A DNA stretch of 63,321 nt, filler included, from Collodictyon triciliatum (lineage: Eukaryota): the NCBI GenBank assembly GCA_043381765.1. It is 5 parts of 5 records of this genome, joined end to end, with 100 filler letters (N's around TTAATTAATTAA, not from the genome) between each part and the next. Parts side by side here need not be neighbours in the genome. Positions count along the whole stretch, not along the records: positions 37,043 to 55,432 come from JBHJMP010001375.1; 4 more parts are not named here. One strand, written 5' to 3'. Numbering within the stretch: position 1 is the stretch's first letter; each line of letters begins with the position of its first letter. The position numbers and the translations under genes were made by a program. A model generated the notes under the pieces. It was given only the letters and a program-made list of their open reading frames with translations. It searched no databases and had not been told where the DNA came from. Of this stretch, positions 426-53,311 are shown one piece after another.

Positions 426-3400
426 TCATTGTGAAAAGGGGTCAAAAGGTCGTCTATTCTTCAGATTTTTCATCTTGACCAATGTTCGCTTGATTTCGCC
501 ACTTTTGAATAAAGGAATCACAAAAGCGATTGATGTAAAATAAAGCAGCCAGATTGAGTTCATTCCAATAAGCAGAGCTGTAATCCACAATTTCGAGTCA
601 AAAAGAGTCGACATGAGCGAAAGGAAGAAGGACAAAAAAATAATGTAGAGACTGGACAACTCCATTTGACTTTCGATTTTCGAGTGGTAAGGCTTATACT
701 CTTTTTGCATCCAAATTGAGCTCTAACAGTTTGTGCTTGATTTAATATTAATTTTCAAAAAATTATCTCATGTATTGCACCATATAAATAAATATTTAAT
801 CGACCTGAATAACGATGATGAGAAGCACGAAAAAAACCGCTGGGCTTGTGTATGGAATGACACTGAGCACAAACGAAAAAGCGATGCGGCGTGCGATTAT
901 GACAAACTCCCAATACTTGAAGGTCTATATAACATAAATCTCATAAATAGTTCAATTGATAATGGAAAAGAAAGAATATTGAATCACATACCTCTTTGTA
1001 TGGCAAGTAAAGGAATCCATATCGCGCTCCTGGTTCGTATCCAGGTCTTTCTGCCATGATTCTCACTTTCCACAATACAAAAGCAGGCAGACCGACCAAG
1101 AAAAGAACGAAAACTGGAACAGATATTGCAAGCAGTTTTTGATATTCATCCGAGGCTGGGCTGCATTGAATCCAGGGCTTGAAATTCAAATACCATTTAT
1201 TCACACCTTCGTCATAAACGGTGCATCCAAAAACACCAAACACCTCTCTTGCAACTGAGTAGTATATAAAAAACAGAAGATTCAATGCGATGAAAACAGC
1301 CTGCCAAAATAATAATAATAATTTAGTAATACTAAAGATGAAGCTGAAACAAATATAAAGATTTTACAATTAGATGTATTTTTCCTCCTTACTTTGTTCT
1401 GCTTGTGTCCATGTCCAAAATAGTACGTGGCTGAGCCAACAATGATAAAGATTGGTATTCTTGCAAAACTGAACACCAGAGAAGCAAACACACCGTCTAC
1501 TCCAAGGACACAGGAAAGGTTGGGGAATTGAATTGAGCTAATAGACGATGAAACATCAATAAAGCTGTTTGCATCTTCTGAAAGAACAAGCCCACTAGAC
1601 ACAATCGACAGTGTTTGCATGTGGAACATTATTATCCTGAGTTTCGCTGAATGAAATATTCTGATTAATATGGGAAGAATCAAAGTGAAAATAATTTAGT
1701 GACATTTACCTGATTTTGATGTCTCTGTGAAATACAGATAGCAAATGAACATAAAGAATCCAACCGAACCAAGAACCAGAGTAGAATAAATTGTTCCTTT
1801 ATTACATTTCACACATGACCTCCCTTGATTTCCGTATCCATTCTGACATTTTGAGCAGGCATAACCTTCATAACCCTCCTGACACAGGTTTATAATTTCG
1901 ACCGTCGTATTTGAATTCGAAATTTTCTCTGGAATCGACACATCACATGACTCGCGACGTGGACATGGCAGTATTGATTTCACAGAGGTGATGCTTGGTG
2001 AAGCATGACAGAATTTCAAGGACGTTCCATCAAGGCAATCACACCCTCTTGGGCATTGAACACAATTATTTCCAAAGCCGAAATATCCAGGTAAGCATTT
2101 ACAAAATTCAAAGCCGTAGTATTCTGGATTCAAGTCAACCTCCAACTCAGTTAGACCAGATTTCGAAATAATTGAAGGACAAAGGTAGCGTTTCGTTTCG
2201 TCTTGCAGATTGAAACTTGTTGTGAAATTCATGAAATCAGGAAGAAAATTGGCGGTTCCGTGATTCATCGATGTTTTATTCAATCCCAGATACTCAAGCT
2301 TTGAAAAACCTATGTATGATTCAGGAATGCTTCCAACAATCGGATTTCCAGTGAGGTCAAGGGAAGTCCAGCTCAACAGATTTGTAAGTTCATCAAGATA
2401 AGTGATGTTGTTGTTTTTAATACTTAATGTTTTTATGTTAACAACAAAGTCAAAAATCCAATGATTCAATGCTCCATAGAGTTGGTTGTCATCAAGCAAA
2501 AGGTTTTCATAAAAATAATCGATATTTCCTGAAGCTGGTGAGATGAAAACACCAATGTCTCCTGAAAATGAGTTGTTTCTCAGATCAATGGTGACTAGAT
2601 TCAGCAAATTCCAGAATGAATCAGGCATACTTCCAGAAAATTTATTGTGGGATAAAACGAGTGATTTCAACTCTAGTAATTCCTGAAAATAGGTTGGGAC
2701 TATGCCGTTCATTTTGTTCCAAGACAAGTCGATGTATTTAATTGAAGGCAATGACCAGTAATTGGGAATAGAGCCACTGACTTGGTTTTCGCTCACATCT
2801 AGTCTTGTCAGGTTATTCAGATTGAACATCGGTAATGTGCCTGTCAACTTGTTTCGGAACAATACTATTTCCTGGATGCTTTCGCAATACTTGAAATCTG
2901 GAACCTCTCCCTCCAACTGATTATCATAAACAGAAAAAATCTCCAGTTTACGCATGTTTGAGAAGTTTGAAATTGCACCTAAAATTACCCATTAATATGA
3001 TAGGAAATGTAAAATCAAAAGAAATAGAAAGGTAAAATAAGTAAAAATCACCATCCAATCTGTTTCTATCAAGGTAAATTATTTCTACATTTGGAATTCC
3101 GTTAAAATTTGGAATGGTTCCTATAATAAAAAGTTAGCTTCTTTTTATATTACATGAAAATAATAATTAACTTACCATTCAATTGATTGTTGTAAAGATA
3201 TATTTCTAAAACATTTGGAATTCCACTGAAGTTTGGAACGGTTCCTATTATATAAAGTTAGTCAGTTTATCAATATTACATGAAAATAATAATTGAAACT
3301 TACCATTCAATTGATTGTTGTAAAGATAAGTTATTTCAAGATTTGGAATCCCACTGAAGTTTGGAACGGTTCCTGTAATGTAAAGTTTGCTTCTTTTTTA

Positions 3401-5187
3401 TATTGCATGAAAATAAACCAAAAAATTACCATTCAATTGATTGCCGGAAAGAGAAATTATTTCAACATTTGGAATTCCACTGAATTTTGGAACTGTTCCT
3501 GTAATATAAGGTTAGTTTATTTTTTCTACTACATGAAAATAATAATTAAAAATTACCAGTCAATTGATTGCTGAAAAGATATATTCCTAAAACATTTGGA
3601 ATCCCACTGAAGTTTGGAACGGTTCCTGTGCTATAAAGTTAGCTTCTTTTTTATATTATACATGGAAATAATAATTAAAAATTACCAGTCAATTGATTGC
3701 TGAAAAGATAAATTATTTCAACATTTGGAATTCCACTGAAGTTTGGAACTGTTCCTGTAATAAAAAGTTAGCTTCGCATCAATAATACATGAAATAATAA
3801 TTAAAACTACCATTCAAAAGATTGCTGAAAAGCCAAATTATTTCAACATTTGGAATTCCACTGAAGTTAGGAACTGTTCCTGTAATATAAGGTTAGTTTA
3901 TTTTTTCTACCACATGATAATAATAATTAAAACTTACCAGTTAATTGATTTCTGTAAAGATATGTCTCTAAAACATTTGGAATCCCACAGAAGTTTGGAA
4001 CAGTTCCTGTTGTAAAAAAGTTGGTACTTCTATTCCATCATACTTAATAAATAAATTAAACCAAACCATGAACTTTGCAGCTATAAATTGCAAGAATCTG
4101 AATATTGGGCAACGCTGAGAAATCAGGCAGAGTTCCTGAAATGGAAAAATCATTAGAATTCAGAATAAATCTTAAAGGAAATTACTTGATACCTGTAATT
4201 TTTTCACTTCCACCAATCCACAATCTCTTCAGCGACTGTATTTCAGAAAAATCTGGTATTGTTCCTTCCAATTCATTCCCATTAATATCAAGATGTTCAA
4301 TTTTCGGCATTCCTTGAAAGTCTGGAATCGTTCCGGTAAATCGATTTTTATTGAGATTCAGATACGTAATACTTGGGAGATTAAAGTCTGGAAGATTTCC
4401 GTAAATGAAGTTGTGGCTCATGTCCAAAGAATCCAATAATTGGAGCTTCTCAAAAATCGTCGAGGCAGCTTCAATGTTACCGTTAAGATTGTTTTCAGAC
4501 ATTCTGATTTCCACGATAGGGCATGTGTTTCTCTATAAATATAAAGGAAAATATGTTAAAAATGAAATCAAAAGAGATTATTATTTCAAGAAATTACCTT
4601 ATAGTCTTCATCCGAGCAGCTCTGATGACACGATATTCCATACCAATCACAAATCGGAATACTTTCATTCTTCCATCCAGAGTTCCGAAACCAATTATCG
4701 CCGCCAAGTGAATCGTAAAGTTGGACAAGCAGTTCGTATTGGGTCCCAGCATTTCCATCTGCCACATTTCGGTTCTCTTCGTTCTCTAACCCCCGTTCTC
4801 TGTTTCTACTTCGTTTTGGCGAATGAATTTCTTTGTAGAAATCGACCTTACTAGATGTTAATTTTCTTCCATAATTCCATTCAGCACCGTGTCCATTTTC
4901 TAGCGAGTATCCTCCATCTTTGCAGCCATCCATCAACCCTGAAAAGCTATCTTCACTCTCTTTTAACAAAGGACAGTTCTCATCGTAGAAGCTCAACAGA
5001 ATTTGGAACGCATCTTCGACATTCATGGAAAGCAACTCATCTCTTGAATACTGGCATCTGTTTTCATCATTAGAGTCGAAAGTATATTTTATAAATATTC
5101 ATAAATCAAAATATACCTTTGACGTGGGTGAATTGAGTATACCGATGAAACAGCGAAAACGGTGGAAATGAAGGCAACCAAAAGCAT
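426..5187 (-). CDS. Cell-surface LRR receptor-like protein: signal peptide, LRR N-cap, many extracellular-type LRRs, Cys-rich segment and C-terminal multi-pass (~9 TM) domain
   Basis: Hand-spliced in frame with GT-AG introns. Exon 1 (5187-5117) encodes MLLVAFISTVFAVSSVYS (signal peptide). N-cap LVQLYDSLGGDNW..SGW...PICDWYGISC; LRRs of the LxLxxNxLxGxIP type; CLPGYFG and CQEGYEGYACSKCQNGY Cys motifs; TM domain with YGFLYLPYK..KYWEFVIIARR and KPY motifs; stop at 426-428. Confidence 0.9.
3052..4135 (-). repeat. Tandem array of nine exon+intron units (~124-129 bp), each a 69-nt single-LRR exon
   Basis: Exons at 3052-3120, 3176-3244, 3304-3372, 3430-3498, 3557-3625, 3686-3754, 3811-3879, 3938-4006 and 4067-4135. 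All have YAG|GAAC...TG|GT boundaries and are phase 1-1. The 55-60 nt introns resemble each other. Confidence 0.95.
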
Positions 5188-50828: not shown

Positions 50829-50932
50829 TTATTTATTCATCTATTTATTCATCTATTTATTCATCTATTTATTCATCTATTTATTCATCTATTTATTCAT
50901 CTATTTATTCATCTATTTATTCATCTATTTAT
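50829..50932. repeat. (ATTTATTCATCT)n 12-bp tandem repeat
   Basis: Directly visible. Confidence 0.9.
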
Positions 50933-51263
50933 TAATTTTTTTCAGAACTGGAGGAACAAAAAGCGTATAACATACCTTCTTTTTCTGGAATATATCTTAA
51001 TTCTGTATTTAATTTATATATTTGTCATTTTTGATATAATAAATACATATTAAATAACAATATAATATATATATTAATAAAAAAATTATTCTCAGGAGAC
51101 CGAAATTGGTGTAATTCAATTTTGCATTATTATTGCACGATTTTCCCACTGAAACCTCACATTCTCTTTCCACTCGTTCTCGTGAAACTCCCTGTGGACT
51201 CAACGCCACTACACCCTACGGAACATCCAGCTGTCCTCCAAAGAAGACTAAGGCCTACGCAAG

Positions 51264-52149
51264 ATGACTGTAAGTATCTAGCTAGACACCTCTACGAACA
51301 ATATCAACCCCTGAACCTCCGTTCCTTCTATATGGCCCGTGGTGGGGGAAAGTTAACACGCCACGATAGCGCCCGAGAGAACACCGAGAAAAGTCATCCA
51401 CAACCCCCGTGTCCCACTCTAGTAGGCTGTTGAAACTGTAGGAATCAAGATTTTTGCAAAATCAGTCCCTCTCGGGAGGGAGGTGAATAAATTTGCTACT
51501 GGTATCGACGCCACAACTGGATGTTGGCTTTAAGCGAGACTCAGGCCGTCAGATAGGAAAATATTCACCAATTCTCACCAACTTTGGTGTCTGGGGTGCC
51601 GATCATGTCCCTGATTTACAGAACACGTCCACAACAGCCTCCTACCAACACTCACTACACTCCAATGTCGCTCGCACAACATTTTTCCGCATAATTCCCT
51701 CAGCACCTGACTGATTACCATTCTCTTTCATTACGCAGTACCCACCTACTGATCTGCTCCACCCTTCTGAGTCCGCTGAGAAGAGAAAGCACAAGCTTAA
51801 GCGCCTCATCCCTTCCCCCAACAGCTACTTCCTTGATGTCCGCTGCAATGGCTGCAACGTGATGTAAGAGTGCAGTCCCATGTTTTTAACAACAAGGCCA
51901 CCCTTCCCGGCAAGCTGAACTCTCTGAGACCCCTACCTTTTCTACTCTTAACTCAATCACCCCGAACAACCTGAAACTAACTGTTGCTCCCTTTTTCTTT
52001 TTTTTTTTTTCATTTTGTTCAGCACCACCGTCTTCAGCCACGCTTCCACAGTTGTTGTCTGCAGCTCATGCTCCAACATCATCGCCACCCCGACCGGAGG
52101 TGTGGCCAAGCTGTCCGAGGGCTGCCAGTACCGCCGCAAGGCCGAATAA
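51264..52149 (+). CDS. RPS27: 40S ribosomal protein S27 (eS27)
   Basis: Exons 51264-51269 (ATG ACT|GTAAGT), 51739-51863 and 52023-52149 give [85 protein letters not shown]. Confidence 0.95.
51424..51640 (+). ncRNA. Candidate structured RNA element inside RPS27 intron 1
   Basis: Nested stems: AGGCTGTTG/CAACAGCCT, CTGTA(GG)AATCA/TGATTTACAG, GATTTT/AAAATC, TCCCTC/GAGGGA, GGTGAATA/TATTCACC, TATCGACG/CGTC(A)GATA and CACCA/TGGTG. No family recognised. Confidence 0.5.
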
Positions 52150-52536
52150 ACGCCTCTGCCGTGCTGTACAACCCACACCCGTCAAACACACGACTTGCCG
52201 CTGTCAACCGCCTCCTCCCTCCGCCAAATTCTCTATTCGTAACGCTGGAGGTGGATTCTAGGACTGGGCCACTGCGAGTAACTTTGTATGGAGCTGTGGT
52301 TTCATTTCATGGAAAGGATGCAGAGGTGGAGGCAGGCGACCGGCCGGGCCCGACACGCACTGGGCCGCCCCGCAAACAGGCGGGGACGCACCCACATGCA
52401 AGAGCGGGGTGAACCGGGCAGAGGCACACGAGGCCGCAACCTTGGCTGCAGGAGAGGAGGGAAAGAGGAAGGAAGGGAGGGAGAATAACAGAGAGGGAGG
52501 GCGTGGATCCGGTGGCCCAGGCAGACAGGGGGGGGA

Positions 52537-53311
52537 TTACAGAAGCAGGCAGAGGGGCTTCTTTGTCGGGGGCTTGTCCTGCTTGCCGGGGGTGGCCTCG
52601 GCCTTGCGGACCTCGCGGACCAGCTCGCTGAAGGCCTCGTCGACGTTGAGGGGCAGCTTTGCGGAGGTCTCGAAGAAGGGGCACTTGAACTTCTTTGCGA
52701 GCTCCTTGCCCTCCTCGGTGGAGACCTTGCGCTCGTTGGCCAGATCGACCTTGTTGCCCACAAGCACCATGGGGATGGTGTCGGCGTCCTTGCACCGCAG
52801 GATCTTTTCGCGCAGCGACGCAACCTCCTCGTACGAGCTGCGGCTGGTGATGCTGTAGCACATCAGGAAGCCCTTGCCCTCGCGCCACCACTGCGTCGTC
52901 GGGAGGGGGCGGTTAGGACGGGGGAGGGGGAGAGGGAGAGGGAGAGGGAGAGGGAGGGGTACGGTACCTGGTCCTGGATCGTCTTGTACTCCTCCTGCCC
53001 TGCCGTGTCCAGGATGTCGAGCACGGTCGAGACGCCGTCGATGGTCACCTGCTTGCGGTAGCTGTCCTCTGCAGGAGGGGGTGTGGGTGAGTGGGTGAGT
53101 GGGTGAGTGGGAACGGGGCGGAATGACTCACCGATGGTGGGGTCGTACTCGGTCACAAAGTGCTTCGAGACGTACTGGATGGTCAGGGCGGACTTGCCGA
53201 CGCCGCCTGCTCCGACAACAACCTGCGTGCGGCAGAGGCCCGTGTCAGCGAGTGGGAGGGGGGAGGAGGGAGGGTGTGGCTGCGTACGAGTTTGTTCTGC
53301 TGCTGGCTCAT
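52537..53311 (-). CDS. RAS: Ras-family small GTPase
   Basis: Four coding exons encode [22 protein letters not shown], effector loop YDPTIEDSYRK, DTAGQEE, NKVD, ETSAK and CaaX CLLL. Confidence 0.95.

Follow-up and report, generated by a model that had tools for sequence, protein, structure and literature searches.

The first intron of the RPS27 gene of Collodictyon triciliatum may carry an ordinary box H/ACA guide RNA of about 185 nt, at positions 51500-51684 of the window, the whole 63,321-nt stretch of DNA that was analyzed. This putative assignment, drawn from sequence and from modeled structures, is tentative, with a little less than an even chance of being right. Its basis is an intron that is spliced, boxes and guide nucleotides present in both RPS27 copies of the genome, and complementarity to the organism's own large subunit (LSU) rRNA. 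A gene for dyskerin/Cbf5 was found in the genome. The larger fold that an earlier note had placed at 51330-51655 of the same intron is incidental and is no real feature.

Results

Contigs assembled from RNA defined an RPS27 gene with three exons and two introns on the plus strand. Exon 1 (51164..51269) contains the 5' UTR followed by ATG ACT, with the ATG at 51264; RNA contigs begin at 51164-51182 and join to 51739. Then follow intron 1 (51270..51738, GT..AG), exon 2 (51739..51863), intron 2 (51864..52022, 159 nt) and exon 3, which runs through the stop codon (52023..52150). Exon 2 shares 90% identity with C. triciliatum RPS27, and the next-best matches reach at most 80%. The sequence CTGAT at 51711..51715, kept in both RPS27 copies, is by its position the probable branch point. 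The 75-Mb assembly contains exactly one further RPS27 gene (locus L002); a loose end in RNA run X1 corresponds to the 5' UTR of this gene, so that both copies seem to be expressed.

The joint across intron 1 was an exact skip in three of the four RNA runs, and in the fourth the joint lay at the same place, the final base of the exon carrying a strain variant. No alternative joint was seen in any of the four. Contigs of X2 and X5 do not enter the intron, one of X4 covers 51359-51509 at a depth of 2, and one of X1 covers 51323-51768, from the intron into exon 2, at a depth of 6 versus 783 for the spliced form; this last contig could be pre-mRNA or DNA. All of these runs consist of assembled contigs and bear neither way on a stable intron-derived RNA. 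A possible poison exon at 51466-51501 (AG..GT with an in-frame stop in both copies) has no joint in these RNA runs and no clear branch point.

The length of 469 nt and the lack of microsatellites described earlier were confirmed, with no tandem repeat inside 51270-51738. The description of this intron as unusually long holds against the internal introns measured close by and in other ribosomal-protein genes (63-159 nt) but is weak against other first introns: where further ribosomal-protein genes open with a start-codon mini-exon, the intron after it measures 301, 264 and about 387 nt (the start codon being inferred for the last), and that of the paralogous RPS27 measures 534 nt. Long first introns are usual for the ribosomal-protein genes of this genome. 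On either side of RPS27, the window contains a perfect 12-nt tandem repeat of 8.7 copies (50830-50933, in the interval that separates the RPS27 promoter from the gene upstream) and a Ras-like GTPase gene, recognized by eye on the minus strand at 52570-53310 and convergent with RPS27. The introns of the latter are 65, 63 and 77 nt long, some of them filled with short repeats.

The region 51330-51655 had been called highly structured. It gave a z-score of +0.67, with 70 of 100 shuffled sequences folding as well, and the shorter spans 51426-51642 and 51420-51655 gave -0.83 and -1.70. The perfect 9-bp stem said to close 217 nt does exist (51424..51432 with 51632..51640) and dominates the computed fold of the intron, with pair probabilities of 0.95-0.99. 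It is at chance level, however, since a perfect inverted repeat of at least 9 bp occurred in 261 of 1000 shuffled introns, and it is lost in the paralog, where the 5' arm has diverged and a 3-nt deletion lies beside the 3' arm. The strain variant G51425C in X1 breaks one of its pairs without compensation. The 217-nt fold was ruled out on these z-scores, the shuffled stems and the loss in the paralog. The smaller elements fared similarly, each being present in the window copy but not conserved. The ACA at 51648..51650, one of 14 in intron 1, reads TTA in the paralog; the H-like AGAGAA at 51376..51381 reads GTAGAA; and the upstream hairpin (51338..51365, CGTGGTG at 51338 with CGCCACG at 51359, 7 bp with one G-U) is split by a 67-nt purine repeat. 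Trimmed to 29 nt, this hairpin had a z-score of -3.0, the only element to reach such a value, in a window picked by hand.

The paralog is the only homolog available for this span, and the two-copy consensus fold had a z-score of -0.05. A search of all 4227 Rfam families yielded no match in the window at the gathering threshold, the best E-values being 2.8 near intron 1 and 4.8 in the paralog. A MITE or other dispersed repeat, which requires many copies, was excluded because the only two places in the genome are the two RPS27 introns. With a non-significant z-score and no conservation or covariation, two outcomes that the earlier note itself had named as speaking against its 220-320-nt RNA were found. 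The H/ACA version built on 51376 and 51648 was rejected, as both boxes are gone in the paralog and the fold is not significant. What is left of the proposal, some H/ACA RNA within the intron, would lie elsewhere, at 51500-51684, with other boxes, and has nearly even chances.

The 5' hairpin of this candidate (51502..51556, plus strand) would have, in the window copy, a lower stem of 4-5 bp (51502-06/51552-56) and an upper stem of 8-9 bp (51517-26/51535-44). The predicted pocket holds a left guide, GCCAC (51510..51514), invariant in both copies, and a right guide, GCCG/GCCA (51545..51548). An H box of the form ANANNA, AAAATA (51558..51563), lies in the hinge 1 nt after the lower stem in both copies, and a second conserved ANANNA lies at 51553. 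The 3' domain (51585..51670) consists of a 13-bp helix (51585-98/51658-70) and a 5-bp inner hairpin (51601-05/51612-16), with the proposed guides GGGTG (51594..51598, also part of a helix arm) and CAAT/CAGT (51663..51666). The predicted 3' end is formed by an ACA conserved in both copies and the 3 nt that follow (51679..51684); the ACA is 8 nt past the end of the helix, which is a long spacer. Two stable hairpins, a spacing of about 15 nt between pocket and box, and at least 8 bp of guide pairing define the class (excerpts of PMC6049503 and PMC7601244). The spacing found is 13 nt (window) or 14 nt (paralog) for the H box and 16 nt for the ACA, and each pocket offers 5 + 4 bp around an unpaired U-N in both copies, above the 8-bp minimum (excerpt of PMC6049503).

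In these models, spacing and pairing agree with the class and the hairpins only in part. In the 5' hairpin, 9 of 10 cells of the lower stem and 13 of 17 of the upper stem are paired. The constrained fold of the window copy has -6.1 kcal/mol versus -12.9 for an alternative. The two X1 variants that fall inside this hairpin, C51540T and G51556C, each replace a mismatch of the model by a Watson-Crick pair; of these, C51540T alone is independent of the paralog. The paralogous hairpin gives -11.5 kcal/mol with the pocket held open versus -21.8 when free to form an alternative hairpin that hides the pocket; its upper stem is broken at three of eight pairs and the guide is sequestered, so that the 5' pocket of the paralog looks decayed or refolded in the model. 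The 3' domain of the window copy, with its pockets held open, has +2.6 versus -14.9 kcal/mol free, its left guide makes up one strand of a 7-bp helix that both copies retain, and the pocket shows no acceptable upper stem in either copy. The candidate was not filed as a member of the H/ACA class because the 3' upper stem is missing and the left guide is paired in a conserved helix.

The genome's own rDNA, with 1798 uridines, was scanned for targets that both copies would share, using a conserved box, a spacing of 13-16 nt, a lower stem, and pairing of 9 bp or more with no more than one G-U. Of these uridines, five passed. One is LSU U3229, from the H box at 51558: the left guide forms 5 bp on the 3' side of U3229-U3230 and the right guide 4 bp on the 5' side of U3229. 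Another is LSU U3326, from the ACA at 51679: the left guide forms 5 bp on its 3' side, and the right guide adds 4 bp. The two stand in the right order along the candidate. By alignment they are E. coli U2457 and U2554 (A loop), which gives yeast positions 2826 and 2923. None of the other three was recognized as a conserved site. In this rDNA, the LSU gene (L005:764-5334, minus strand) has an insertion of about 726 nt in its conserved core (LSU ~3357-4083), probably a group I intron, and the 18S, at 2153 nt, is long and contains AT-rich expansions. A second, shorter small subunit (SSU) rRNA match of 1440 nt (L004, G000:C834:42374-43813, minus strand) is probably mitochondrial or bacterial.

In 5000 random draws of uridine sets, the real hits produced such an H plus ACA pair in 1.76% of sets of 100, a round figure for human, and in 0.42% of sets of 45; over 2542 column shuffles the shares were 0.03% and 0.006%. 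These percentages are optimistic, since the criteria were fixed after both hits had been noticed, and the real probability of a chance pair is higher, possibly a few percent. The set of 45 follows the yeast pseudouridine count (excerpt of PMC2879522). When the pocket was fixed by the structure, U3229 ranked first among 41 joint hits and U3326 tied for ranks 2-5 of 163. Requiring an upper stem left U3229 in the window copy alone and removed U3326 from both copies. The window intron alone yielded 30 distinct targets under the upper-stem rules, so matches in a single copy are cheap.

Guides for the same sites were also sought elsewhere in the genome. Three patterns gave 4, 61 and 39 matches versus 9, 12 and 43 in reversed controls, and none of those scored (4 of 4, 30 of 61 and 30 of 39) was convincing as a snoRNA. 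The best (L150) offers 13 bp to the Ψ2826 site with a fold z-score of +0.66, and by eye is antisense to a gene start; it is a reminder that such guide matches arise by chance. A U65-like pocket for Ψ2880 (51552-59 with 51598-603), seen by eye in the window copy only, was rejected: X1 and the paralog break it and its ACA is 20 nt away. The family models of snR10, SNORA21 and SNORA65 did not find the candidate locus.

The comparison of the two RPS27 copies bears on whether there is a functional RNA at all. The exons are 98% identical and the 3' UTR is at about random level. Intron 1 is shared over 51499..51738 (about 74% by BLAST); identity is 73% (135/186) over 51499-51684 and about 50%, the level of shuffled sequences, over 51276-51498, so that conservation sets in at the predicted 5' end of the candidate. 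Intron 2 is 84% identical, above the 73% of the candidate region (p 0.018), with no indel outside a U tract; a search of it for structure, boxes and rRNA targets found none. Another gene, eL42 (RPL36A), is also duplicated (L101, L102), with near-identical exons (92-98%) and fully diverged introns. All three of these introns are at about shuffled level, and this control implies that the 3' part of RPS27 intron 1 and intron 2 were kept alike by selection or gene conversion. Being conserved without structure, intron 2 calls for conversion at the level of genomic DNA, unless it has another role.

It is accordingly quite possible, though not the reading we prefer, that this is an ordinary long first intron without a functional RNA, the pocket matches being chance and the shared 3' part the result of gene conversion or partial re-duplication between about 51499 and the stop codon. 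The gradient of identity, from exons through intron 2 and the 3' part of intron 1 to the 5' part and 3' UTR, is what this would leave, and intron 2 requires an explanation of the conversion type anyway. Polymorphism in X1 is equal in both parts of intron 1 (6 sites in the 186 nt of 51499-51684 versus 5 in the 176 nt of 51323-51498). At four sites the window copy departs from X1 and the paralog alike, each time weakening a proposed helix, a pattern that points to constraint being relaxed or absent. Transitions make up 35 of the 47 differences between the copies and were dropped as a signal of structure, a dispersed repeat having an equal excess (18 of 24). That repeat, of about 247 nt and 90% identity, occurs upstream of the paralogous RPS27 (L002:519-764) and at 1-247 of the window. 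Consensus folding of the whole conserved region gave a z-score of 0.0 and reached p 0.02 in only one of 11 windows, plus one sub-window of it. Other first introns are long as well, and unconserved in eL42. In fungi, ribosomal-protein paralogs often undergo conversion, which mostly leaves introns out, as in the eL42 control here; the first observation favors this explanation and the second speaks against it (both from an excerpt of PMC6993855). Also against it, two of the five filtered targets are conserved pseudouridine sites of the peptidyl transferase center (PTC), and the 13-bp helix retains all of its pairs. An identical run of 17 nt taken alone has p 0.07, but jointly with an invariant run of 13 nt it has p 0.014, and each of the two contains one left guide.

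More distant sequences were sought for the same comparison. A pattern of splice site plus exon matched no stretch in metagenomes. A protein query for RPS27 relatives gave 153, of which 80, at most 76% identical, were kept, and the introns had no blastn match among these 80 (best E 0.39). A covariance model of both copies found two matches in 86 sources, both of them the training sequences.

The 13-bp helix is, in the models, the best-supported structure of intron 1. All 13 pairs are kept between the copies, with one compensatory and three one-sided changes, and its window in the consensus fold has a z-score of -2.2 and p 0.02, with 11 windows tested. Its domain (51585-51670) lies about 40 nt before the branch point. 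It is conceivable, if unlikely, that it acts in cis in the pre-mRNA to tune splicing of intron 1, possibly with free eS27 binding to it as feedback. If the intron were retained, translation would meet a stop after 5 codons (window copy) or 9 codons (paralog), and the X1 contig that continues from the intron into exon 2 would fit. Structured parts of long introns occur likewise in yeast ribosomal-protein genes (RPS9A/B, RPL18A, RPS22B and RPS17B; excerpt of PMC4937481). Such a role is disfavored by the lack of alternative joints in all four RNA runs and by the weakness of the helix in the window copy, where its pair probability is about 0 when the whole intron is folded alone, versus 0.8-0.99 in the paralog. 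Also against it, pairing between introns 1 and 2 is at chance level (p 0.91).

Searches for other RNA families gave no clear match at this locus. The earlier note had matched no box C/D, RNase MRP or TPP motifs, and motif searches of intron 1 confirmed this. Neither copy has RUGAUGA, and the bases before the conserved CTGA at 51611 differ between them. The P4 pseudoknot motifs of RNase MRP RNA are absent from both introns; an MRP RNA was found elsewhere in the genome (L094, G000:C6238:828-1211, plus strand), with 59 bits, above the Rfam cut-off, and 384 nt versus the 266 positions of the model. The UGAGA junction and the P4/P5 motif of the TPP riboswitch are absent, with zero Rfam matches. A telomerase template of the form CCCTAA is absent from both copies; CCCTGAA occurs once, at 51309, and not in the paralog. 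Both introns lack TATTCC and AAACC, which we take to be the m1 and m2 cores of snR30/U17 after a check against the organism's own 18S, and the SNORA73 model had no match at the locus. A SNORA73 match elsewhere (L008, G000:C1604:9826-10043, minus strand; 28.8 bits, E 9e-4) was rejected as U17/snR30, as it lacks the m1 core; it overlaps long open frames and is probably chance. The contacts of snR30 with 18S are described in an excerpt of PMC4105744.

Against the rDNA transcript, the longest antisense stretch in intron 1 of the window copy is 12 nt with two G-U, and in the paralog 14 nt; it belongs to the invariant block of 13 nt and presumably points at 18S immediately 3' of the ES7 expansion. 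In the paralog alone, a 13-bp pocket on SSU U1271 is formed there. That the intron yields an H/ACA RNA, orphan or acting in processing, which pairs with 18S through the invariant block 51592-51603, or an RNA of an unrecognized class, is nevertheless very improbable. By estimate, a search space of this size holds a few such 12-nt matches by chance, the window copy fails the pocket on U1271, and motifs of U17/snR30, RNase MRP, C/D and TPP RNAs are missing, as is a CCCTAA telomerase template.

Discussion

The preferred reading remains the guide RNA at 51500-51684. By analogy with H/ACA biology, the excised intron 1 would be debranched and then trimmed down to about 185 nt, leaving an RNA that ends 3 nt past the ACA at 51679, and this RNA would bind Cbf5, Nop10, Nhp2 and Gar1. 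Its 5' hairpin would position LSU U3229 (E. coli U2457, yeast Ψ2826) for pseudouridylation, the likelier of the two sites; the 3' domain may do the same, less surely, for U3326 (E. coli U2554, yeast Ψ2923, in the A loop). The fuller proposal, that one intron-borne H/ACA RNA guides both sites, with the 3' pocket, normally shut by the conserved helix, refolding in order to act and the RPS27 paralogs dividing the functions (the 5' pocket in one copy and the 3' helix in the other), is improbable, somewhat more so than the cis-acting structure.

Both sites have known guides. Human SNORA21 has the same target as yeast snR10, the equivalent of Ψ2923. The candidate resembles snR10 in aiming its 3' hairpin at Ψ2923 (excerpt of PMC2879522) and in being long, and differs from it in that the 5' hairpin of snR10 has a 7-nt processing element and in that the 3' pocket of the candidate is without an upper stem. 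It resembles yeast snR34 and human U65 (SNORA65) in a 5' hairpin aimed at LSU Ψ2826 with the H box next to it (excerpts of PMC5778458 and PMC11121408, the latter equating yeast Ψ2826 with E. coli Ψ2457 and U2921 with Um2552). In contrast, the 3' pocket of snR34 guides Ψ2880, not Ψ2923, and the candidate has only 9 bp versus 12-14 bp in snR34 and snR5. The SNORA65 model had no match in this genome at E<=10. The location, and the presumed release from the spliced intron, are as in the snoRNAs of animal ribosomal-protein introns, of which human has 57 in 28 ribosomal-protein genes (excerpt of PMC3412847). A literature search made no RPS27-hosted snoRNA evident and found neither reports of collodictyonid snoRNAs nor a guide for both Ψ2826 and Ψ2923.

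If the explanation without a functional RNA holds, RPS27 intron 1 is an ordinary intron with a footprint of gene conversion. The candidate, if real, would be a useful annotation and no new mechanism. With both pockets active, it would join two sites that yeast splits between snR34 and snR10. It would also be, as far as the literature was searched, the first intronic H/ACA guide from the collodictyonids (CRuMs), and it would provide a deep-branching point for tracing how snoRNAs in ribosomal-protein introns evolved and how guides for the conserved PTC pseudouridines were reshuffled.
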